Below, piece by piece: positions 28,336 through 41,125 of a stretch of 61,274 nucleotides of DNA; the stretch's first letter is position 1, and every line of letters starts with the position of its first letter. The DNA is taken from contig JAQTQJ010000011.1 in the NCBI GenBank assembly GCA_028712255.1, forward strand, positions 1-61,274. Direction: 5' to 3'. The notes beneath the pieces were generated by a model. That model saw only the letters and a program-made list of their open reading frames with translations, searched no databases and was not told where the DNA came from. The position numbers were made by a program, and so were the translations under genes. The stretch is from Candidatus Omnitrophota bacterium (GTDB lineage Bacteria; Omnitrophota; Gorgyraeia; Gygaellales; Profunditerraquicolaceae).

Positions 28336-28371
28336 TTGCAAGATTTAGCCCTTCTGTTATAATTATTCCCT

Positions 28372-29397
28372 ATGCCAGAATTAAGAAAAGATCCAGTTAT
28401 AGGTAGGTGGGTAATTATTTCCACTGAACGTGCTCGTCGTCCTGATCAATTTGCAAGCCAGACTAAAGATCAGGAGAATCCGTTGGACTGCCCATTTTGC
28501 GAAGGCAAAGAAGCAAAAACTCCCCCTGAAATTTATGCTATTCGTCCGCATAATTCTACTCGTAATGCTCCGGGTTGGGATTTACGTGTCGTTCCTAGTA
28601 TCTCACCTTTTTTAAGAGTAGAAGGCGATCTGGAGCGCCGGGGAAATGGTGTTTATGACGTAATGAACGGAGTAGGCGCGCATGAGATTGTAATTGAAAC
28701 TAATCAGCATATAGCCAATATGGCGGATTTGAGTGAAGAACAAATTACTAAAATACTTAATTGTTATTCTGATAGAATAATTGATTTGGAGAAAGATATC
28801 CGTTTTAAATATGTTTTAGTATTCAAAAATTATGGTAAGGGTTCAGGAGGCACGGCAATCAGGCATACTCGTTCACAGTTGATTGCTACTCCGGTTAACC
28901 CTAAGCGAGTAAAAGAGGAGTTAGCAGGCGCGCGCCTCTACTATGAATATCATGAACGCTGCGTATTCTGTGATTTGATTAAACAGGAGTTGGCGCAAAA
29001 GGAGAGGGTAATTTTGGATTTGGATGGTTTTTTAGCGGTTACTCCGTTTGCTGCGCGTTTTCCTTTTGAAACCTGGATTTTACCGAAGCAGCATTGTTCG
29101 GATTATACCTGTATGGATGCCGAATCACGCAGAAACCTTGCTCGCCTGCTCAAAGCTGTTCTTTTAAAAATGAAAATCGGGTTAAATGATCCGGATTATA
29201 ATTACGTAATTCATACTGCACCATTCCGAAGACAAAAGAGCGGTTATTGGAAAACTATTGATCAGGATTATCATTGGCATATTGAGATTATGCCTCACTT
29301 GACCAAAGTTGCTGGTTTTGAATGGGGAACAGGTTTTTATATCTGTCCTCTTCCTCCGGAGGAAACAGCTAAATTTTTAAGAGAGGTAGAAATTTAA
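28372..29397 (+). CDS. GalT-like HIT-superfamily nucleotidyltransferase paralogue lacking the nucleophilic His (H-T-R-S-Q)
   Basis: 341 aa. CPFCEG zinc motif and GAHEIVIE are retained. The HxHxQ position reads RHTRSQ (Arg codon CGT at 28870-28872). Confidence 0.75.
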   Translation: MPELRKDPVIGRWVIISTERARRPDQFASQTKDQENPLDCPFCEGKEAKTPPEIYAIRPHNSTRNAPGWDLRVVPSISPFLRVEGDLERRGNGVYDVMNGVGAHEIVIETNQHIANMADLSEEQITKILNCYSDRIIDLEKDIRFKYVLVFKNYGKGSGGTAIRHTRSQLIATPVNPKRVKEELAGARLYYEYHERCVFCDLIKQELAQKERVILDLDGFLAVTPFAARFPFETWILPKQHCSDYTCMDAESRRNLARLLKAVLLKMKIGLNDPDYNYVIHTAPFRRQKSGYWKTIDQDYHWHIEIMPHLTKVAGFEWGTGFYICPLPPEETAKFLREVEI

Positions 29398-30396
29398 ATG
29401 GGTGAATTAAGAAGGGATCCGGTTGTTGGCCGATGGGTGATTGTGGATACAGAGCGCCCAAAGAAACCACAAGACATTAAATATGAACAGCATATTCCCG
29501 AAGGTGGATTATGTCCGTTTTGTTATGGTAATGAATCTATGACTCCTCCGGAGATAAGCTGTTTTCGTGATCCAGGTACTGCAGCAAATTCTGTCGGCTG
29601 GCAGGTACGTGTGGTTGCCAATAAATTTCCGGCTTTACAGATTGAAGGCGATCTTAACCGCAGAGGAATAGGTATTTATGATATGTCAAACGGAATAGGA
29701 GCGCATGAAGTTTTAATTGAAAGCCCATACCATAATAAGGATATTCCAGAGCTCTTAGAGCAGGAAATTGAAAGCTATCTTAAAATGTGCTGCGAGCGCC
29801 TGGCGGACTTAAAAAAAGACAGTCGTTTTAAATATATTATGGTTTTTCGTAATTATGGAGCTGCCGCCGGGGCGACATTAGAGCATCCTCATACGCAATT
29901 GATAGCCTTGCCTATGGTGCCAAAAAATACGCTGGAAGAGATTCACGGCGCGCGTGATTATTATAATTACCGTGAGCGTTGTATATTCTGTGATATCCTT
30001 CGCCAGGAGATTGGCGATAAATCAAGAATAATCTTAGAAAATAAATATTTTATTTCTTTCTGTCCTTTTGTTTCCCGGTTTCCATTTGCAATCATGATCA
30101 TGCCCAAGCAGCATAGTGGTTATTTTAGCCATATTTCATCAGGTCCGGAACTATCGGCCTTAGCACAGATTTTAAAAGATACATTAACAAAACTAAAAAA
30201 AGTATTTGTAAATTTATCATATAATTATATAATTCATTCTGCGCCTATTAACGGTGAAGCTGATGTGGAGTATTACCATTGGCATATTGAGATTATGCCA
30301 AAGCTTACGCAAGTTGCAGGTTTTGAGTGGGGGACCGGTTTCTATATTGATCCAACCTCGCCTGAATTAGCCGCTCAGTATTTAAAAGCCGTATAG
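29398..30396 (+). CDS. GalT-like HIT-superfamily nucleotidyltransferase (hexose-1-P uridylyl/ADP-glucose phosphorylase type), canonical HPHTQ
   Basis: 332 aa. CPFCYG, GAHEVLIE and EHPHTQLIALP (29884-29898). ATG follows directly after the TAA of the upstream paralogue. Confidence 0.8.
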   Translation: MGELRRDPVVGRWVIVDTERPKKPQDIKYEQHIPEGGLCPFCYGNESMTPPEISCFRDPGTAANSVGWQVRVVANKFPALQIEGDLNRRGIGIYDMSNGIGAHEVLIESPYHNKDIPELLEQEIESYLKMCCERLADLKKDSRFKYIMVFRNYGAAAGATLEHPHTQLIALPMVPKNTLEEIHGARDYYNYRERCIFCDILRQEIGDKSRIILENKYFISFCPFVSRFPFAIMIMPKQHSGYFSHISSGPELSALAQILKDTLTKLKKVFVNLSYNYIIHSAPINGEADVEYYHWHIEIMPKLTQVAGFEWGTGFYIDPTSPELAAQYLKAV

Positions 30397-30438
30397 AAGA
30401 ATTGGGGTAAAGATTACCCACGTTTGCCGATTAGCTGC

Positions 30439-30495
30439 GAAACAGTTTCCGCTTCAATCGGGAAACTGTTACCAGATTAGGTTGGAAACTGTTTC
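30439..30495. repeat. Family D hairpin plus an extra arm
   Basis: AACAGTTTCC-GCTTCAATCG-GGAAACTGTT forms a perfect 10-bp stem (30441-30470). An extra GGAAACTGTTTC arm lies at 30484-30495. Confidence 0.7.
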
Positions 30496-30521
30496 GTCAA
30501 AATATAAAGAGGAGGAGTCAG

Positions 30522-31574
30522 ATGGCAGTTAAAGTCGGTATTAATGGTTTTGGTAGGATTGGTCGTCTTGTGGCGCGCGCAATTTTAGAAAAAAATAGTA
30601 AAAACATAGAACTTGTGGCAATCAATGATTTAACTGATGCCAAAAGTAATGCCTATCTTTTTAAGTATGATTCTGTGCACGGACGTTTTAATGGTGAAGT
30701 AAAGGCAACTGCTGATGATGTAATCTCAGTTAATGGCAAAGATATTAAAGTTTTAAGCAAAAGAGATCCGGCTGAGCTTCCCTGGAAAGATTTGGGAGTG
30801 GAGATTGTAGTTGAATCCACAGGGTTATTTACAATTAAAAAAGATGGAGTGAATAAAAAAGGCAAAGAAGTAAAAGGCGCAGAGAATCATATAACTAAGG
30901 GTGGCGCTAAAAAAGTGGTTATCTCTGCTCCGGCTGAAGGAGAAGATATAACGATTGTTATGGGTGTTAATGAGTCAAAGTATGATCCTAAGAATCATCA
31001 TGTAATTTCCAATGCTTCCTGTACCACCAATTGCCTTGCTCCTGTTGCTAAGGTTATCAACGATAACTGGGGTATTGTGAAGGGGCTTATGACTACGATA
31101 CATTCCTATACTAATGACCAAAGATTGCAGGATATGGCACACTCAGATTTACGGCGTGCCCGCGCTGCTGCGGTTTCCATGATTCCTACTTCTACCGGAG
31201 CTGCTAAGGCAATATCATTGGTTATCCCGGAATTAAAAGGCAAACTTGATGGTTTTGCAATCCGTGTGCCTACACCTAATGTTTCGGTCGTGGATTTGAG
31301 CGCAACCTTATCTAAGAAAGTGACTGTTGAGGAGCTAAATGCTGCTTTTAAGGCAGCGGCAGAAGGCTCGATGAAAGAGATACTTGGATACACCGAAGAT
31401 CCGGTAGTTTCAATTGATTTTAATCATTGTTTATTAAGCTCGATAGTTGATGCCAAAATAACTAAAGTTATTCAGGATGATTTTATTAAAGTGTTGGCCT
31501 GGTATGACAATGAGTGGGGTTATTCTAACCGTGTAGTGGATTTATGCGATTATATTGTTAAGAAGGGATTATAA
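30522..31574 (+). CDS. gap: Glyceraldehyde-3-phosphate dehydrogenase
   Basis: 350 aa. [12 protein letters not shown] and [12 protein letters not shown]. Confidence 0.95.
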
Positions 31575-31682: not shown

Positions 31683-32864
31683 ATGGCAAAATTAACCTTA
31701 AAAGATATTGATATAAAAAATAAAGTAGTTTTGGTGCGTGCGGATTTTAATGTGCCGCTTGATGCCAACCTTAATATTACTGATGATATACGTATTCAGG
31801 CAACTCTGCCTACCTTAAAATATATTTTAGAGAATGGCGCAAAGAAGCTGGTGATTATGAGCCATTTGGGCCGTCCTGATGGCAAGCCGGTTGCCAAATA
31901 CAGCCTTAAGCCGGTAGTAGCTCGCCTGAAAGAACTCTTAGGGCAAAATGTACTGTTTTTGAGCGATTGTGTAGGTGATAATATTAAGCAGGAAATCGAT
32001 AAATCGAAAGATAGGGTAATTTTACTGGAGAATCTACGTTTTCACGCTGAAGAGGAGGCTAATGACGCTGGTTTTGCCAAGCAGTTAGCATCTTTGGCTG
32101 ATATTTTTGTTAATGATGCTTTTGGTACCGCCCATCGCGCACACGCATCTACTGAAGGGGTTACACATTTCTTAAAATCTGCCGCAGGTTTTCTTTTAGA
32201 GAAAGAGATTAAATATTTAGGTAGTGCCGTGAGTAATCCTCAGAAGCCCTTTATGGTTATTTTGGGCGGAGCAAAGGTGACGGATAAAATCGGCCTTATT
32301 CAGAACCTGCTTCCTAAATGTGACGCCATTCTCGTCGGAGGAGGCATGGCTTATACGTTTCTAAAAGCTCAAGGCAAACAGATTGGTAATTCAAAGCTGG
32401 AAAAAGATAAGTTAGATCTAGCTAAATCAATTTTAGACCAAGCTAAAAAATTAAATAAGGAAATCTTGTTACCCATTGATAATGTGGTTGTGGACAATAT
32501 CGATCCGAATGCCTTAACTGAAATTGTCGCAGATAATATTCCTGATGGCAAAATTGCCGTTGATATCGGACCAAAAACAATTAAGTTATTTGAGGGTAAA
32601 TTAAAATTCGCTAAAACTATTGTTTGGAATGGCCCTATGGGAATATTTGAAATGGATAATTTTAGCAAAGGGACTCAAAGCCTAGCTGAATTTATTGCTA
32701 CGTTAAAAACTACCTCGATAATCGGCGGAGGAGATACGGCAGCAGCAATTGCTAAATTTAAATTAGAAGATAAAATGTCACATATCTCAACGGGGGGAGG
32801 GGCAAGCCTGGAATTTCTGGAGGGAAAATCTTTGCCAGGGATTGCTGCGCTTACGGAAAAATAA
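31683..32864 (+). CDS. pgk: Phosphoglycerate kinase
   Basis: 393 aa. [14 protein letters not shown] and GGGDTAAA motifs. Confidence 0.95.
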
Positions 32865-32865
32865 A

Positions 32866-33639
32866 ATGAGGAAAACAATTATTGCCGGAAATTGGAAGAT
32901 GTATAAGACAATCAATGAATCCATTAATTTAGCCAATGGTTTAAAACGCGAACTCTTTAAATTAGATTTTGCGAAGGTTGATGTGGTGTTATGCCCAGTA
33001 TTTACCGCTTTAAATGAAGTAGCTGAAGTTTTGAATGAAACGGATATCCAGTTAGGAGCTCAAGATATTTATTGGCAGGATGAAGGGGCTTTTACCGGAG
33101 AGGTTTCTGGGCTTATGCTTAAAGATGCCGGCTGCCAGTATGTTATTATCGGGCATTCTGAACGCAGGCAGTTTTTTGGCGAGACTAACGAAACTGTGAA
33201 TAAAAAGATTAAGGCTAGCTTAAAACACGGATTAGCTCCTATTGTATGTGTGGGTGAGAATCTACAGGAAAGAGAGTCTAATAATACATTTAAGGTGATT
33301 AAAGATCATATTGAAAACGGTTTAGTTGACATTAATGTAGATGATATGCTTAAAATAGTAATTGCGTATGAGCCGGTTTGGGCAATCGGCACTGGTAAGA
33401 CTGCCACCGGCCAGCAGGCGCAGGAAGCGCATAAGTTCATACGTGATTTATTAAAAAAGATTTATGGGGAAGAAGTTGCCAGCCAAGTTAGGATTCAATA
33501 TGGCGGAAGTGTTAAGCCTGAAAATATTGTAGAATTGATGGGTAAACCGGATGTAGATGGAGCATTAGTGGGTGGAGCAAGCTTAAAGACAGATTCTTTT
33601 AGTTCAATAGTAACTAAAGCAAGCGAGGTTGTGAAATGA
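32866..33639 (+). CDS. tpiA: Triosephosphate isomerase
   Basis: ATG 32866 lies 1 nt after the pgk stop. [16 protein letters not shown] and [10 protein letters not shown] motifs. Confidence 0.95.
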
Positions 33640-35419: not shown

Positions 35420-36019
35420 ATGATGGAACTATTTAAGCCTTATATACTTAGCTTTATTCCGCTTTTTGTGGCGGTGGATGCCATTGGCAATATTCCTATC
35501 TACTTATCTTTGGTTGAAAATTTTTCTAAGGCTCAGCAGAAAAAGATAGTTTTGGATGCGGTTACTACGGCTACTGCGGTTGCGGTTATTTTTATGGTTG
35601 TAGGCAAGTGGATATTTTCGCTGTTGGGCATAACTATTCCGGATTTTCAGATTGCAGGAGGGGCGCTTTTATTTATTATTGCTGTTCGCTTATTAATGCC
35701 AGGGGCTCAGAAAAGTACTTTAACCAACTCGCATGCTAAAGATATGGGTGTATTTCCATTAGGGACCCCTTTAATTACGGGCCCGGCGGTTTTAACCACG
35801 ACGCTAATGATGATGAATAGTTTTGGCGCCGTACCTACTTTAGTTGCATTGATATTAAATATGATTTTTGTCTGGCTTGCTTTGGTTAAAGCGGATGTAA
35901 TTATAAAGTTTATCGGCCCAAGCGGTATTCGAGCATTCTCTAAAATAATCTATATATTGTTAGCTGCCATTGCGGTTATGATGATTAGGCATGGCATAGC
36001 CGGAGCATTTTTGAAGTGA
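35420..36019 (+). CDS. MarC-family (UPF0056) integral membrane protein
   Basis: 199 aa with 6 TM helices. FIPLFVAVDAIGNIPIY N-terminus typical of MarC. Confidence 0.75.
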   Translation: MMELFKPYILSFIPLFVAVDAIGNIPIYLSLVENFSKAQQKKIVLDAVTTATAVAVIFMVVGKWIFSLLGITIPDFQIAGGALLFIIAVRLLMPGAQKSTLTNSHAKDMGVFPLGTPLITGPAVLTTTLMMMNSFGAVPTLVALILNMIFVWLALVKADVIIKFIGPSGIRAFSKIIYILLAAIAVMMIRHGIAGAFLK

Positions 36020-37239
36020 TGCGTAAAGTTTTAACTTTTATTATGGCAGGTGGTAAAGGAGAACGGCTCCTGCCTTTAACCAAAGACCGCACTAAACCGG
36101 CAGTCCCTTTCGGCGGGATTTATCGGATTATCGATTTTACTCTAAGCAATTGTATTAATTCAGGGATGCGTAAGATTTATATCTTAACACAATATAAATC
36201 CGCTTCTTTGCAAAGGCATATTCGCTTGGGTTGGAATTTTCTGCCTTCGGAGCTAGGCCAGTTTATTGAATTACTTCCTGCCCAACAGCGTATAGGAGAT
36301 TCCTGGTATTTGGGTACGGCCGATGCCATCTATCAGAACCTCTATACTTTAGAAATGGATAAGCCGGATGAAGTTCTGATTTTAGCCGGTGACCATATCT
36401 ATAAAATGAATTATTATTCTATGATTGATGTACATCGTGAACAGAATGCGGATCTGACGGTGGGAGTTGTAGAGATCGATAAAACTAAAGCCAAACATTT
36501 AGGAGTTATTGAAACGGATCCTAATGGAAGGGTCACGGGTTTTCAGGAGAAACCGGTAAATCCTAAAACTATTCCCGGAAGTCCCGATAAAATTTATGGT
36601 TCAATGGGGATATATGTATTCAATCAGTCTGTCCTGATGCAGGAGTTATTGGAGGATGCCAGGAATCATAAATCATCACATGATTTTGGTAAAGATATTA
36701 TTCCTCAGATGTTAAAAAAAGGAATGAAGATTATTGCCTATGATTTCCGTAATAAAGACAAGGAAGAGGAATATTGGCGGGATATTGGAACTATTGATGC
36801 CTATTATGAAGCAAATATGGAGCTAATTCAGGTAAATCCCACATTTAATCTTTATGATCAGGAGTGGTTAATCAGGACTTTTCAGGAGCAATATCCACCG
36901 GTTAAAACTGTGCATTCGGGGGACAAAGAAGAAGGGCGGGTGGGATTGGTGCTTGATTCGATAGTTTCCGAAGGTTGCGTTGTTAGCGGCGGCAGAGTGC
37001 AGCGTTCAATATTATCACCGAATGTTCGAATAAATAGTTTCTCTGAAGTGTATGATTCAATTTTAATGGAAGGGGTTAATGTCGGCAGGTATGCTAAGAT
37101 TAAACGCGCCATTATTGATAAAGATGTGAATATTCCACAGGGGATGATTATCGGTTTTAATTTAGAAGAAGATAAAAAGAGGTTTTTTGTCAGTGAATCA
37201 GGAATTGTTGTAGTCGCCAAAGGAACAGAAATTAAGTGA
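36019..37239 (+). CDS. glgC: Glucose-1-phosphate adenylyltransferase
   Basis: AGGKGERLLPLTKDRTKPAVPFGGIYRIIDFTLSNCINSG. ATG 36019 or GTG 36016, overlapping the MarC stop. Confidence 0.9.
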   Translation: MRKVLTFIMAGGKGERLLPLTKDRTKPAVPFGGIYRIIDFTLSNCINSGMRKIYILTQYKSASLQRHIRLGWNFLPSELGQFIELLPAQQRIGDSWYLGTADAIYQNLYTLEMDKPDEVLILAGDHIYKMNYYSMIDVHREQNADLTVGVVEIDKTKAKHLGVIETDPNGRVTGFQEKPVNPKTIPGSPDKIYGSMGIYVFNQSVLMQELLEDARNHKSSHDFGKDIIPQMLKKGMKIIAYDFRNKDKEEEYWRDIGTIDAYYEANMELIQVNPTFNLYDQEWLIRTFQEQYPPVKTVHSGDKEEGRVGLVLDSIVSEGCVVSGGRVQRSILSPNVRINSFSEVYDSILMEGVNVGRYAKIKRAIIDKDVNIPQGMIIGFNLEEDKKRFFVSESGIVVVAKGTEIK

Positions 37240-37904: not shown

Positions 37905-39056
37905 ATGGATTATTTATTGACCGATGAACAAAAGATGATCAAGGATTTGGCGCATAAGATTGCCGAAGAAAAGATTCGTCCGGCAGCGGCTAAATATGAT
38001 ATTAGCGAAGAGTACCCCTGGGATGTTTTAAAGGTCATGGGTGAATCTGATATGTTTGGTTTATTTATTCCTGAAGAGTACGGCGGTTTTGCCAATAGCA
38101 CAATGAATCTATGCTTGGCAACCGAAGAGTTTTCCCGTGCCTGCGGCGGTATTGCAGTTTGCTATGCGGCCAGCGCTCTGGGGACAATCCCGATTGTTTT
38201 GTTTGGTACCGATGAACAGAAGAAAAAATATTTACCTGACCTAGCTAAAGGTAAAAAGGTTGCGGCATTCGCCATTACTGAACCTGAGGCTGGATCTGAT
38301 GCTTCAGGAATTAAAACTGTTGCTAGAAAAGAAGGAAAGCATTATATTTTAAATGGCCTCAAGCATTTTATTACTAACGGCGGAGATGCCGAAACTTATG
38401 TTGTAATTGCCATGACTGATAAAACAAAAGGAGCTCGTGGGGCAACTGCATTTATCGTTGAAAAAGGAACTCCTGGTTTTACTTTTGGTAAAAAAGAGGA
38501 TAAATTTGGTATTCGCGCCTCAAGTACGCGCGAACTGATTTTTACTGATTGTTTGATCCCAGAGGAGAATTTATTGGCAAAAGAAGGCATGGGTTTTATC
38601 GTCACTATGAGGACTTTTGATATGTCGCGGCCGGGTGTTGCGGCTCAGGCATTAGGTATTGCCCAGGGGGCTTTGGAGTTAGCAGTAAAATATGTGCGCG
38701 AAAGAGTACAGTTTGGTAAACCGATATCCAGTTTCCAAGGAATCCAGTGGATGATAGCAGATATGGCTACGGAAATCGAAGCAGCCCGCGGTTTAGTTTA
38801 TTCTACCGCTAGAATGCTTGATGCCGGAGTAAAGGATGTATCTAAAGAATCGGCAATGGCCAAGATGTATGCTTCAGATGTAGCGATGAAGGTTAGCGTA
38901 GATGCTTTGCAATTATTCGGCGGATACGGATATATGAAAGATTATCCGATTGAAAAATATGTACGTGATGCTAAAATTACCCAGATCTATGAGGGGACAA
39001 ACCAGGTGCAGCGCGGTATTATTGGTTTGAAAGTAATTAAGGAAATGGCCAAATGA
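37905..39056 (+). CDS. Acyl-CoA dehydrogenase (butyryl-CoA dehydrogenase-like)
   Basis: 383 aa. AFAITEPEAGSDA ... YEGTNQVQR. Confidence 0.9.
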   Translation: MDYLLTDEQKMIKDLAHKIAEEKIRPAAAKYDISEEYPWDVLKVMGESDMFGLFIPEEYGGFANSTMNLCLATEEFSRACGGIAVCYAASALGTIPIVLFGTDEQKKKYLPDLAKGKKVAAFAITEPEAGSDASGIKTVARKEGKHYILNGLKHFITNGGDAETYVVIAMTDKTKGARGATAFIVEKGTPGFTFGKKEDKFGIRASSTRELIFTDCLIPEENLLAKEGMGFIVTMRTFDMSRPGVAAQALGIAQGALELAVKYVRERVQFGKPISSFQGIQWMIADMATEIEAARGLVYSTARMLDAGVKDVSKESAMAKMYASDVAMKVSVDALQLFGGYGYMKDYPIEKYVRDAKITQIYEGTNQVQRGIIGLKVIKEMAK

Positions 39057-39064
39057 GTGGTAAA

Positions 39065-39125
39065 CTATAAGTCCTAAGCTTTAAGCTTACGGCGGCTTAT
39101 AGCTTATAACTTACAGCTTACAGCT
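39065..39125. repeat. Family B heptad palindrome
   Basis: CTATAAGTCCTAAGCTTTAAGCTTACGGCGGCTTATAGCTTATAACTTACAGCTTACAGCT. Confidence 0.85.
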
Positions 39126-39136
39126 AAAGATTAAAT

Positions 39137-39919
39137 ATGAATATAATCGTTTGTATCAAACAGGTTCCTGAGACTACTGAAGTAAGGATTAACCCTGAGA
39201 CCAATACACTGATGCGCGAAGGGGTCAAGGCGATTATAAATCCTTTTGATATGTATGCTATTGAAGAAGCAGTGAGGCTTAAGGAGAGATTTGGCGGTAA
39301 GATTAGCGTGCTTACCATGGGGCCGCCTCAGGCAGATCAGGCTTTGCGTGAAGCAATTTCTATGGGTGCTGATGAAGGTTATTTAGTTTGCGACCGTGCC
39401 TTTGCCGGAAGCGATACTTGGGCAACCAGCTATACTTTGGCAGGAGCAATTAAGAAGCTGGGAGCTTTTGATTTGATTATTTGTGGCAAACAAGCTTCAG
39501 ATGGAGACACGGCGCAGGTTGGCCCGGGAATATCCACGCATTTGAATATTCCGCAGGTAACTTATGTTAAAAAAGTAGAAGAGGCAACGGATAAGTCTAT
39601 GCGCCTGGAAAGAATGCTGGAAGAGGGATATGAAATTATTGAAACACCGCTTCCTGCGCTTTTAACCGTAGTTAAGGAGATCAACGAACCAAGGATTCCT
39701 TCGTTAAAAGGCTTAATGCGCGCAAAAAGCGCCAAAATTACTATGTTGACTCAAAAGGAGCTGGATTTGGATCCGCAACAGATTGGTTTATGCGGTTCAC
39801 CTACTCAGGTAGTAAAGATATTTACTCCAACACCAAGGGTTGGCGGCCAGATACTTAAAGGCGAGATTGACGAGATTGCCAAAGAGCTGGTGAGTTTAAT
39901 TAAAGACGAGGTTAATTAA
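39137..39919 (+). CDS. etfB: Electron transfer flavoprotein, beta subunit
   Basis: 260 aa. MNIIVCIKQVPET and CGKQASDGDTAQVGP. Confidence 0.9.
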   Translation: MNIIVCIKQVPETTEVRINPETNTLMREGVKAIINPFDMYAIEEAVRLKERFGGKISVLTMGPPQADQALREAISMGADEGYLVCDRAFAGSDTWATSYTLAGAIKKLGAFDLIICGKQASDGDTAQVGPGISTHLNIPQVTYVKKVEEATDKSMRLERMLEEGYEIIETPLPALLTVVKEINEPRIPSLKGLMRAKSAKITMLTQKELDLDPQQIGLCGSPTQVVKIFTPTPRVGGQILKGEIDEIAKELVSLIKDEVN

Positions 39920-39922
39920 AAA

Positions 39923-41125
39923 ATGTCTATTGCTATTATCGTTGAGAAATGCACCGGTTGTTCTTTGTGCGTTAAAGCCTGTCCTTTTGATGCTATTCGG
40001 ATTATGGATAAGAAGGCATCAGTTGATTTGCATAAGTGTACACTTTGCGGCTCATGTAAAGATGTATGCAAGTTTAAAGCGGTTTTACTAGAGAAGACCC
40101 CGGCTCAATGTGAATTGCCTGATATAAAAGATTATAAAGGAATTTGGGTTTTTATCGAACAGAAGAATGGCCGGGTGCAGTCGGTTTCATACGAATTATT
40201 AGGCAAGGCTCAAGAGTTGGCTAAGAAATTAAATTGCCAGGTAAGCGGGGTATTAATTGGAGATAAAATAGAAGATCAATTGGATGAATTAATTTTCTGC
40301 GGGGCAGATAATATCTATTTAGTAGAAGCTCCTGAGTTGGCTAATTTCCAGGATGAGCCATATACGAATATTTTAGTAGAGTTGGTTAAGAAATATAAGC
40401 CTGAAATTCTCTTGTGTGGAGCAACAAATATTGGCAGGAGCTTGATTTCTCGCGTGGCTATAAATATCAAGGCAGGACTAACCGCAGATTGCACGGGGTT
40501 GGATATTGACCCGGATAAAAAGATTCTATTGCAGACGCGCCCGGCTTTCGGCGGCAATATCATGGCTACAATTATTTCTCCCAATTACCGCCCGCAGATG
40601 GCAACAGTAAGGCATAAAGTTTTTGTCCCCATGCCCGCTGATAAAAAACGCAAAGGTAAGATTATAAAGGAAAGTTTCGACAATTCTCTTTATGTTTCAC
40701 GCACAAGGCTTATTGATATTGTTGAAGAGATTGAATCTACGGTAAATTTATCCGAAGCAAATATTATTGTTTCCGGAGGCCGCGGGATAGGCTCTCATGA
40801 AAATTTTAAATTATTAGAAGACCTGGCTCATGTTTTAGGGGCTGCAGTCGGCTCATCGCGTGCGGCGGTGGATTCCGGTTGGATGCCTTATTCGCATCAA
40901 GTTGGACAGACCGGCCGTACAGTTGGCCCGAAGATCTATTTTGCATGCGGGATAAGCGGCCAAATTCAGCACCTTGTTGGAATGCAGTCTTCAAAAATTA
41001 TCGTTGCCATCAATAAAGATCCTGAAGCTCCAATTTTCAAAGTTGCTACCTATGGAATTGTCGGCGATCTTTTTCAGGTTGTTCCTGCTTTAACGCAAGC
41101 TTTCAAAATAGCTCTCCGGAAATAA
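39923..41125 (+). CDS. etfA: Electron transfer flavoprotein alpha subunit with N-terminal 2x[4Fe-4S] ferredoxin domain
   Basis: 400 aa. CTGCSLCVKACP and CTLCGSCKDVC motifs precede the ETF-alpha core (GISGQIQHLVGM). Confidence 0.85.
   Translation: MSIAIIVEKCTGCSLCVKACPFDAIRIMDKKASVDLHKCTLCGSCKDVCKFKAVLLEKTPAQCELPDIKDYKGIWVFIEQKNGRVQSVSYELLGKAQELAKKLNCQVSGVLIGDKIEDQLDELIFCGADNIYLVEAPELANFQDEPYTNILVELVKKYKPEILLCGATNIGRSLISRVAINIKAGLTADCTGLDIDPDKKILLQTRPAFGGNIMATIISPNYRPQMATVRHKVFVPMPADKKRKGKIIKESFDNSLYVSRTRLIDIVEEIESTVNLSEANIIVSGGRGIGSHENFKLLEDLAHVLGAAVGSSRAAVDSGWMPYSHQVGQTGRTVGPKIYFACGISGQIQHLVGMQSSKIIVAINKDPEAPIFKVATYGIVGDLFQVVPALTQAFKIALRK

Follow-up and report, generated by a model that had tools for sequence, protein, structure and literature searches.

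Two adjoining open reading frames (ORFs) on the forward strand of a 61,274-nucleotide stretch of DNA from an uncultured Candidatus Omnitrophota bacterium (GenBank assembly GCA_028712255.1, contig JAQTQJ010000011.1, positions 1-61,274; the whole stretch is called the window here) encode paralogous proteins related to galactose-1-phosphate uridylyltransferase (GalT). ORF A, the upstream one (28372-29397; 341 amino acids (aa), with its TAA at 29395-29397), encodes a GalT-like or ADP-glucose-phosphorylase-like paralogue, and the downstream ORF, B (29398-30396; 332 aa), encodes a GalT-like paralogue with a complete cis catalytic set; the parts of the pair, the elements flanking it, gap-pgk-tpiA and the glgC-type gene all lie on this (+) strand. 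A and B align over their full length with 160/340 identities (47%; BLASTP, E 1e-116), in agreement with an earlier note on this DNA that described two collinear paralogues of 341 and 332 aa. That note also placed the start of B directly after the TAA of A, and the B ATG (29398-29400) does lie immediately 3' of the A stop codon, with both ORFs in the same frame. Within this coupling junction (29381-29400), a Shine-Dalgarno-like GAGAGG (29381-29386) sits in the last codons of A, 11 nt ahead of the B ATG, and AGAGAGG at the 3' end of A recurs in many related loci.

Both proteins match the two Pfam half-domains of the family, GalP_UDP_transf (PF01087; 3.5e-8 for A, 1.6e-12 for B) and GalP_UDP_tr_C (PF02744; 4.4e-13 and 2.8e-13), all above gathering cut-offs, and align over their full length to the Arabidopsis protein At5g18200 (1Z84; also 2Q4H, and 2H39 for the H186G mutant). 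This ADP-glucose phosphorylase is the best PDB match of both (E 6e-70 and 39.7% identity for A, E 3e-64 and 36.6% for B). It is like A and B in length and in a zinc site made of CPFC plus two histidines, and has in common with them a second Cys-x-x-Cys/His site, the GFExGTG loop, the HxHxQ motif (with B) and the Arg-x-x-Arg motif (with A). At5g18200 is reported to be a homodimer whose active sites lie between its subunits, each chain carrying both halves, whereas here the halves are split over two genes. The class I Leloir enzymes (E. coli GalT and human GALT) have the same fold family and an interface-built active site, and their role-bearing residues (His164/His166/Gln168, Asn77, Ser161, Arg28/Arg31 and the 311-323 loop) were used to interpret A and B, but they are remote in sequence, E. 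coli GalT matching the pair only at 1e-22 to 1e-27.

Subunit A combines an intact N-terminal motif with a remodelled catalytic loop. Its segment T18-E-R20-A-R-R23-P24 (28423-28443) holds an Arg-x-x-Arg equivalent to Arg28/Arg31 of E. coli, Arg48/Arg51 of human and Arg41/Arg44 of At5g18200. The zinc-site cysteines of C40-P-F-C43 (28489-28500) are kept, as both are in 38/38 A copies, and His113 aligns with the zinc ligand His115 of E. coli or His133 of At5g18200; the full ligand sets (C40, C43, H113 and H165 in A; C39, C42, H112 and H163 in B) are conserved in 38/38 and 39/39 pairs, respectively. On the nucleotide-binding strand, Ser76-Ile77 (28597-28602) occupies the place of E. coli Asn77-Asp78, where B and the single-copy homologues have Asn-Lys. 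The remodelled loop reads T161-A-I-R-H165-T-R167-S-Q169 (28852-28878), with a 1-residue insertion upstream of His165. The position of E. coli Ser161, a residue reportedly essential according to mutagenesis from the Frey laboratory, is Gly in 29, Thr in 6 and Ser in 2 of 38 A copies, and Thr161 in this window. Within the motif R164-H-T-R167-S-Q169 (28861-28878), H-T-R aligns with H184-S-H186 of At5g18200, so that Arg167 (CGT, 28870-28872) replaces the nucleotidyl-accepting histidine; position 167 is Arg in 35/38 and His in 3/38 paired A copies. The earlier note had thus read the Arg in RHTRSQ correctly, and the residues it listed as kept in A, namely CPFC, the GAHE histidine and the first histidine of the motif, are all present (C40/C43, His104 and His165), along with Gln169. 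A nucleophilic histidine displaced by a residue or two, which that note had named as an outcome that would speak against its proposal, was looked for in A and not found, and a shifted nucleophile is rejected; the H-x-X-x-Q spacing is equal in A, B, At5g18200 and E. coli GalT. Towards the C terminus, L310-I324 (LTKVAGFEWGTGFYI; 29299-29343) aligns with human Lys334-Gln346 and is the equivalent of the trans hexose-1-phosphate loop; neither this loop nor its flanks (Ile324, Pro326) vary among A copies or single-copy homologues, and the flanks are relaxed in B.

Subunit B has the converse set of features. Asn75-Lys76 (29620-29625) preserves the canonical nucleotide-binding strand, with Asn in every paired B copy (39/39) and every B orthologue (120/120), and E162-H163-P-H165-T-Q167 (29881-29898) supplies the zinc-ligand histidine, the nucleophilic histidine and the glutamine, H-x-H-x-Q being found in 39/39 and 120/120. 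The EHPHTQ motif reported earlier for B is therefore real, although the positions given for it, 29884-29898, cover HPHTQ only. The zinc-site cysteines are aligned at C39-P-F-C42 (29512-29523), and the trans-loop equivalent (LTQVAGFEWGTGFYI; 30304-30348) has a conserved core with relaxed flanks. The Arg-x-x-Arg is weakened to T18-E-R20-P-K-K23-P24 (29449-29469), in which Arg20 is kept and the second position is Lys23; B orthologues mostly have T-D-H-P-N-K-P or worse in this segment (for example, TDHPNKP, TDSPLKP, KSNTPAI, IDKAKGP and TEDYWKP). On these motifs B counts among the catalytic members of the GalT / ADP-glucose phosphorylase branch and is the proposed catalytic subunit. H-x-H-x-Q is absent from A and from all 120 of its best database homologues (73-91% identical), every one of which has H-x-[R/K]-S-Q (Arg 114, Lys 6); A is thus a homologue rather than a catalytic member of this branch.

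Loss of the nucleophile has not been accompanied by decay of A. The gene is intact in >150 genomes and contigs and more conserved than B, and a decaying pseudogene is rejected on these grounds. Across the same genome pairs, mean identity is 66% for A-A and 61% for B-B, A-A exceeds B-B in 94% of comparisons, and mean column entropy is lower for A than for B.

A comparison of 38-41 A copies and 38-39 B copies with 37 single-copy homologues from at least ten other phyla reveals a reciprocal loss of half-sites. With R-x-x-[R/K] scored as the trans motif and Asn plus H-x-H-x-Q as the cis set, the trans motif is intact in 38/38 A copies and the cis set in 0/38. Among B copies (n=39), the cis set is intact in 39/39, strict R-x-x-R in 0/39 and R-x-x-K in 1/39, the last being the B of this window; cis and trans are both intact in 37/37 single-copy homologues. 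The motif T-[E/D]-R-[A/G/S]-[K/R]-R-P is intact in all A and all single copies, with counterparts P-H-R28-A-K-R31-P in E. coli and P-A-R-A-K-R-P in At5g18200. Asn is replaced by Ser in 36/38 paired A copies. Independent sets of 120 A and of 120 B orthologues show the reciprocal pattern again: A orthologues have Ser at position 76 in 120/120, Arg20 in 120/120 and Arg at position 23 in about 116, and B orthologues have His (106) or Arg (3) at position 20 and Lys (81) or Arg (2) at position 23. An unbiased screen for columns conserved in A but differing from the residue of B and the single copies returned only the Asn77 equivalent (to Ser) and the His166 equivalent (to Arg); a relaxed screen added the Asp78 equivalent (Lys to Ile), the Ser161 equivalent (Ser to Gly/Thr) and the adjoining 1-residue insertion. 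All four A-specific columns are cis active-site positions. In the opposite direction, a screen for columns that B has relaxed but that do not vary in A or the single copies picked out Arg20 (E. coli Arg28) and the residues flanking the C-terminal loop. The nucleophile of A was a late loss: three A copies (L028, L029 and L035) still have the histidine, yet already carry the Asn-to-Ser and Ser-to-Gly changes, and their B partners are already without the R motif. In a rough neighbour-joining (NJ) tree these His-retaining copies are scattered among Arg copies, and His (CAT) to Arg (CGT) is a single transition.

The two genes are also kept together. A scan of one genome per species (GTDB), based on a 9-sequence alignment and the single pattern [AD]GFEWGTG, gave 80 loci. 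In all 39 in which both genes are visible, A is followed by B on the same strand, as it is in three more divergent pairs (L085-L087); the other outcome that the earlier note had set against its proposal, genes that are never co-conserved, is not what relatives show. The 39 tandem loci are labelled Omnitrophota or, for some third-party assemblies, Planctomycetales/Planctomycetia. The stop-start spacing is -14 to +4 nt in about 29/38 pairs, with a full range of -14 to +409 nt. Programmed read-through of the A TAA into B, which the shared frame in this window would allow, is rejected as a conserved feature because spacing and frame vary among relatives. At the upper end of the range, the A-B junctions of L012 (9030-9300) and L013 (9030-9438) are split by inserts of 271-409 nt that interrupt the stop-start coupling and consist of repeated GC-rich palindromic units (ACCCGCACCTCGTAAGC, GCACTCGGTGGGGTTT), with the look of repetitive extragenic palindromic (REP) sequences or miniature inverted-repeat transposable elements (MITEs).

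Very divergent A copies, found in an exhaustive HMMER search, retain ATERARRP or STERSKRP and are followed 10-22 nt downstream by a B with intact cis residues and a degraded R motif, in fmt-A-B(-gap) synteny. Degeneration of the rest of the protein proceeds from RHVRSQ in P0127 to SHSRSH in P0136, which keeps ATERARRP, and to P0181, in which CPFC and even the first histidine are lost and ATERARRP is kept. A further case is a 599-aa A-B fusion (PWOP01000182.1, P0121) directly upstream of gap-pgk-tpiA-secG, the same syntenic position. Its A half consists only of the N-terminal MSELRKDP...VERAKRP segment and a C-terminal half-domain with the GFEWGTG loop, and its B half starts at CPFC, with no R segment, and carries EHPHTQ. 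As this fusion is a singleton cluster, it is weighed as supportive only.

The division into cis and trans elements follows residue roles transferred from papers on the human and E. coli enzymes. The glucose-1-phosphate site of human GALT is composed of Lys334-Gln346 of one chain and Gln188/Asn173 of the other, and Arg48 (E. coli Arg28) comes from the chain opposite Gln188; Gln188 interacts with Asn97, and in E. coli Arg28, Arg31, Gly159 and Ser161 touch UDP-glucose, according to the paper on the human structure (PMC5081055). Intersubunit hydrogen bonds listed in a molecular dynamics (MD) study (ARG48A-PHE99B, ARG48B-PRO100A, ARG51A-ASP98B and HIS47A-PRO100B; PMC8513022) indicate that the Arg-x-x-Arg segment of one chain packs against its partner's Asn-Asp-Phe nucleotide strand.

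Taken with these roles, the reciprocal losses suggest that A and B pair as an obligate heterodimer, a nucleotidyl-transferase or phosphorylase like those of the GalT / ADP-glucose-phosphorylase type, a reading to which we assign a probability of about 0.7. Active sites of this family form across the dimer interface, with cis elements from one chain (the nucleotide strand with Asn-Asp/Lys, the essential Ser, the zinc-ligand and nucleophilic histidines and the Gln) and trans elements from the other (the N-terminal Arg-x-x-Arg and the hexose-phosphate loop). A duplication within Omnitrophota would then have been followed by complementary degeneration, B keeping its cis residues and losing Arg-x-x-Arg, and A keeping Arg-x-x-Arg and the trans loop while its cis residues were lost through Asn-to-Ser, Lys-to-Ile, Ser-to-Gly/Thr and His-to-Arg/Lys changes. 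In an A:B dimer, Asn75, Ser160, His163, His165 and Gln167 of B would meet Arg20, Arg23 and the trans loop of A in one live site; the pseudo-site, formed by the cis residues of A and the trans residues of B, would be defective on both chains and form no covalent nucleotidyl-enzyme. Neither homodimer would hold a complete site, A:A being without a nucleophile and B:B without the trans arginines, and the tight stop-start coupling would favour equimolar synthesis of A and B. The earlier proposal of a heterodimer of one catalytic and one pseudo-enzyme subunit gains strong indirect support from the reciprocal loss, but it falls short as a description, since either subunit carries defects in one half of a common site. 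Fold and motifs are those of the GalT / ADP-glucose phosphorylase branch, whose chemistry is probable for A:B, and the finding of a split site has good backing in the sequence evidence. The sequence patterns, the synteny, the fusions and the co-conservation of the two genes are direct observations, whereas a physical A:B complex, inactive homodimers, the substrate, the direction of flux and the role of the pseudo-site we infer.

The conserved remodelling of A could alternatively mean that A is itself an enzyme with altered chemistry, in which Arg or Lys supports non-covalent hydrolysis or phosphorolysis, or a Lys-linked intermediate, on another substrate, so that the operon would encode two activities. 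The pocket is indeed held constant (Ser76 in 95%, Arg/Lys167 in 100% of 120 orthologues, together with Gln169 and the zinc ligands), and three A copies retain His. Four cis positions have changed together, however, among them the equivalent of Ser161, whose role is said to be essential; the trans arginines that the partner would contribute for substrate phosphates in the A site are gone; and the Arg:Lys ratio of 114:6 favours charge over nucleophilicity. The pocket of GalT works by a ping-pong mechanism and never houses more than a single hexose phosphate, which speaks against direct transfer. We regard a separate activity of A as improbable.

Several observations weigh against an obligate heterodimer. 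The replacements in B are mostly His20/Lys23 and still basic, and the B of this window has Arg20, so a B:B dimer might retain some activity. A single-copy clade outside Omnitrophota (L064, L067 and P0122) has HxHxQ intact and R-x-x-R absent, with no neighbouring paralogue within 3-6 kb, and loss of the R motif alone is thus not proof of dependence on a partner. The core of the B trans loop stays conserved, which a fully dead pseudo-site would not require, and retrieval with [AD]GFEWGTG biases the apparent conservation of this loop. Half-site loss is widespread in the family and is not always accounted for by a tandem partner: of 137 family cluster representatives, both halves are intact in 91, only the cis half in 21 and only the trans half in 9, and 16 appear defective in both; some of the defective ones are singletons from unrelated contexts. 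The compared sequences are phylogenetically related, and the counts are not independent events. The transfer of cis and trans roles is a distant one, human and E. coli GalT being only about 20-26% identical to A and B, and one of its two sources consists of homology modelling and MD simulation rather than crystal contacts.

Some of these points would also suit two separate homodimers, a working enzyme B2 and a non-catalytic A2 that binds a sugar nucleotide or sugar phosphate as a sensor or regulator and merely shares the operon. The homodimer is the usual form of GalT-family proteins; conservation of A is strong and extends to its zinc site, Gln169 and the loop; the residues at B positions 20 and 23 remain basic; and L064 and L067 show that HxHxQ proteins can exist as single copies without the R motif. 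This arrangement leaves unexplained why a motif that does not vary in 37/37 single copies, Arabidopsis and E. coli was lost from B, why A keeps Arg-x-x-Arg in 38/38 without a catalytic site of its own, why ATERARRP persists in ever more degenerate A copies and why the P0121 fusion kept only complementary halves. We consider it unlikely, though less so than a separate activity of A.

Members of the family without a visible partner occur in varied surroundings. The P0122 type, with KHAHSQ intact, lies between a large outer-membrane-protein-like gene and ruvX/mltG-like genes. P0142 (L082-L084) has a degenerate GHSISE and adjoins acetate kinase, P0129 (L089) has QHSYSH with neither R motif nor nucleophile and adjoins a baeRF/eRF1-like gene, and the degenerate P0146 and P0135 are found on short contigs or in unrelated contexts. 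The tandem model is not extendable to these last four, for which no partner is visible.

Within the heterodimer model, the conserved loop core of B and the conserved remodelled pocket of A suggest that the pseudo-site may still bind something. It would have lost the nucleotide and transfer elements (the Asn77, Ser161 and His166 equivalents of A and the Arg-x-x-Arg of B), kept the hexose-phosphate elements (the GFEWGTGFY loop core of B, Gln169 of A and the zinc site) and gained a conserved central Arg or Lys. That this remodelled pocket acts as a sensor of a hexose phosphate, or of some other phosphorylated metabolite, and governs the one live site is a tentative idea, on balance doubtful but easier to credit than independent homodimers. 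If true, a symmetric glycogen-operon enzyme would have become, in Omnitrophota, an allosterically regulated heterodimer tied to gap-pgk-tpiA.

The logic of such a pair has analogues elsewhere. Heteromers of an enzyme and a dead paralogue are known from the prozymes of trypanosomatid deoxyhypusine synthase and S-adenosylmethionine decarboxylase (AdoMetDC), and related cases are heterodimeric ATP-binding cassette (ABC) exporters with one degenerate ATP site and the small and large subunits of plant ADP-glucose pyrophosphorylase (AGPase). In each, a duplicated homo-oligomer with composite sites became a heteromer with one canonical site, the other site degenerating on both chains and the 'dead' paralogue becoming indispensable; their folds and chemistries are unrelated to those proposed for A:B. 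Within the HIT superfamily, avian Hint-Asw is a predicted heterodimer, but its pairing is inhibitory rather than complementary. No description of a GalT pseudo-enzyme or heterodimer pair was found in the searchable literature on the GalT branch of this superfamily. GalT-type enzymes are textbook symmetric homodimers, and a lineage-wide split site would, if true, be the first found for this branch and a clean natural case of an obligate heteromer arising through complementary degeneration, with the 'dead' subunit the more conserved.

The surroundings of single-copy relatives point to glucan rather than galactose metabolism. GalT-like proteins of Zixibacteria, Ignavibacteria, Acidobacteriota, Auribacterota, Thermoguttaceae and others, the forms joined to GlgA or GH57 included, share 50-56% identity with A and B, and the rough NJ tree places B within this group. 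Unlike the pair, they are single-copy with both half-sites intact (37/37) and occur in glgC-glgA-X-GH57 clusters; they probably represent the ancestral form with the same chemistry. Single-copy homologues adjoin glgA, GH57, glgC or a sugar nucleotidyltransferase gene in 23/39 loci (neighbours confirmed with Pfam; for example, L044, L048, L057, L075 and L080), in the orders glgC-glgA-X-GH57, (NTP_transf_4)-X-glgA, GH57-GH57(BE_C)-X and glgA-GH57-X-GH57. Fusions found in the exhaustive HMMER search include a GlgA-type starch synthase with a GalT-like module (P0159; 814 aa, 19 cluster members, Coprothermobacterota) and GH57 with a GalT-like module (P0166, 875 aa; P0188, 858 aa). A transcript of Eutreptiella gymnastica (P0147, 871 aa) encodes, after a 140-aa low-complexity N-terminus, two complete GalT-like modules in one chain, both with HxHSQ; to judge by these modules it is a eukaryotic single-chain version of the dimer.

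The kinship with At5g18200, the glycogen-gene neighbours and the fusions together argue for a reaction of a nucleoside diphosphate (NDP)-glucose and glucose-1-phosphate rather than Leloir galactose catabolism, and lend support to the preference of the earlier note for a role in ADP-glucose or glycogen turnover, on stronger grounds than a glgC gene 6 kb from the pair. The likely reaction of the pair would be ADP-glucose + phosphate <-> glucose-1-phosphate + ADP, or one closely akin to it with another NDP-hexose; such a reaction would connect alpha-glucan metabolism with the downstream glycolytic genes. By analogy we infer an ADP-glucose phosphorylase (EC 2.7.7.36-type), an enzyme that works through an adenylyl-His intermediate. 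A counterweight to this assignment is that only 3/39 tandem loci hold a glycogen gene, the Omnitrophota pair having left the glycogen operon for a place between fmt and gap-pgk-tpiA, so the pair may use another substrate than the single-copy relatives do. For the parent family, an ATP-independent conversion of glucose-1-phosphate and ADP to ADP-glucose and phosphate, pulled by glycogen synthase, may be envisaged; if true, it would be an undescribed entry into bacterial glycogen synthesis. No relevant paper on a bacterial ADP-glucose phosphorylase or on GalT in GH57/glycogen clusters was found in the searchable literature, and the glycogen-operon GalT-like proteins are unmentioned in a 2024 Chem Rev review of prokaryotic alpha-glucan enzymes.

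An ordinary Leloir GalT duplicated by chance, with A a recent, inactive and functionless copy, is the reading that annotation would suggest: databases list A and B as galactose-1-phosphate uridylyltransferase, and both proteins score marginally above the TIGR00209 cut-off (A 107 and B 130 bits vs 102). Against NF008724 (PRK11720), they reach only 124 and 135 bits vs a cut-off of 448, the closest solved relative is an ADP-glucose phosphorylase, and A is intact and more conserved than B across the phylum. The galK/galE/galM context of class I enzymes has no counterpart here, the bacterial relatives of A and B lying in glycogen rather than gal operons. Searches of the 61-kb window with E. coli GalK, GalM and GalE (tblastn) gave no match for galK or galM and only a weak epimerase-family match at 1186-1560, 27 kb from the pair; the earlier remark that neither galK nor galE lies nearby thus stands for galK and, for galE, needs only the mention of this distant match. 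Nor was galK, galE or galM found in the 39 tandem loci, which have fmt, priA, gap, pgk and tpiA beside the pair. As far as sequence evidence reaches, a chance Leloir duplicate can be considered already refuted, and we give it hardly any credence. The large bacterial group that carries the annotation galactose-1-phosphate uridylyltransferase but lies in glycogen operons, or is joined to glycogen synthase and GH57 enzymes, comprises about 2000 clusters at E<=1e-30. When metabolism is reconstructed from genomes of Omnitrophota and many other uncultured phyla, its genes are probably placed in galactose catabolism by mistake.

The pair is embedded in a conserved gene order, priA-fmt-A-B-gap-pgk-tpiA, with gap directly 3' in 30/36 loci and fmt directly 5' in 23/34. 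In the window, the conserved downstream neighbours are gap (30522-31574), pgk (31683-32864) and tpiA (32842-33639), and a gene for a GlgC-type glucose-1-phosphate adenylyltransferase (36016-37239), the sole glycogen gene found there, follows 5.6 kb 3' of the pair. These coordinates match the context given earlier, with gap-pgk-tpiA right after the pair and glgC about 6 kb downstream. Sequencing runs that contain the locus are landfill and groundwater DNA metagenomes.

Candidate control elements flank the pair on both sides. The 36-nt fmt-A spacer (28336-28371) contains a promoter-like site, TTGCAA-16 nt-(TG)TATAAT (28336-28363), which ends 8 nt before the A ATG. It is the top scorer of a consensus scan (10/12 matches, extended -10), a consensus match only, in a region where the total of matches is not above shuffle expectation; at least 13 related loci, among them L002, L004-L006, L010, L015, L021 and L024, have TTGCA-N16/17-TATAAT upstream of A. 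As no Shine-Dalgarno sequence occurs in the 8 nt between this site and the A ATG, the A mRNA may be leaderless or nearly so. The 125-nt B-gap spacer holds three 23-nt units with a GGAAACTGTT core (30422-30496), which are all three exact copies of this core in the 61-kb window, and the repeats include a perfect 10-nt inverted repeat or hairpin stem (30441-30450 / 30461-30470). They may form an operator array or an RNA hairpin element controlling gap.

Further downstream, glgC is followed 3' by an acyl-CoA dehydrogenase gene and then by genes for the beta and alpha subunits of an electron transfer flavoprotein (ETF) (37905-41125). At its N-terminus the ETF alpha subunit carries a ferredoxin-like 2x[4Fe-4S] domain, as is typical of Bcd/Etf-type systems that bifurcate electrons.

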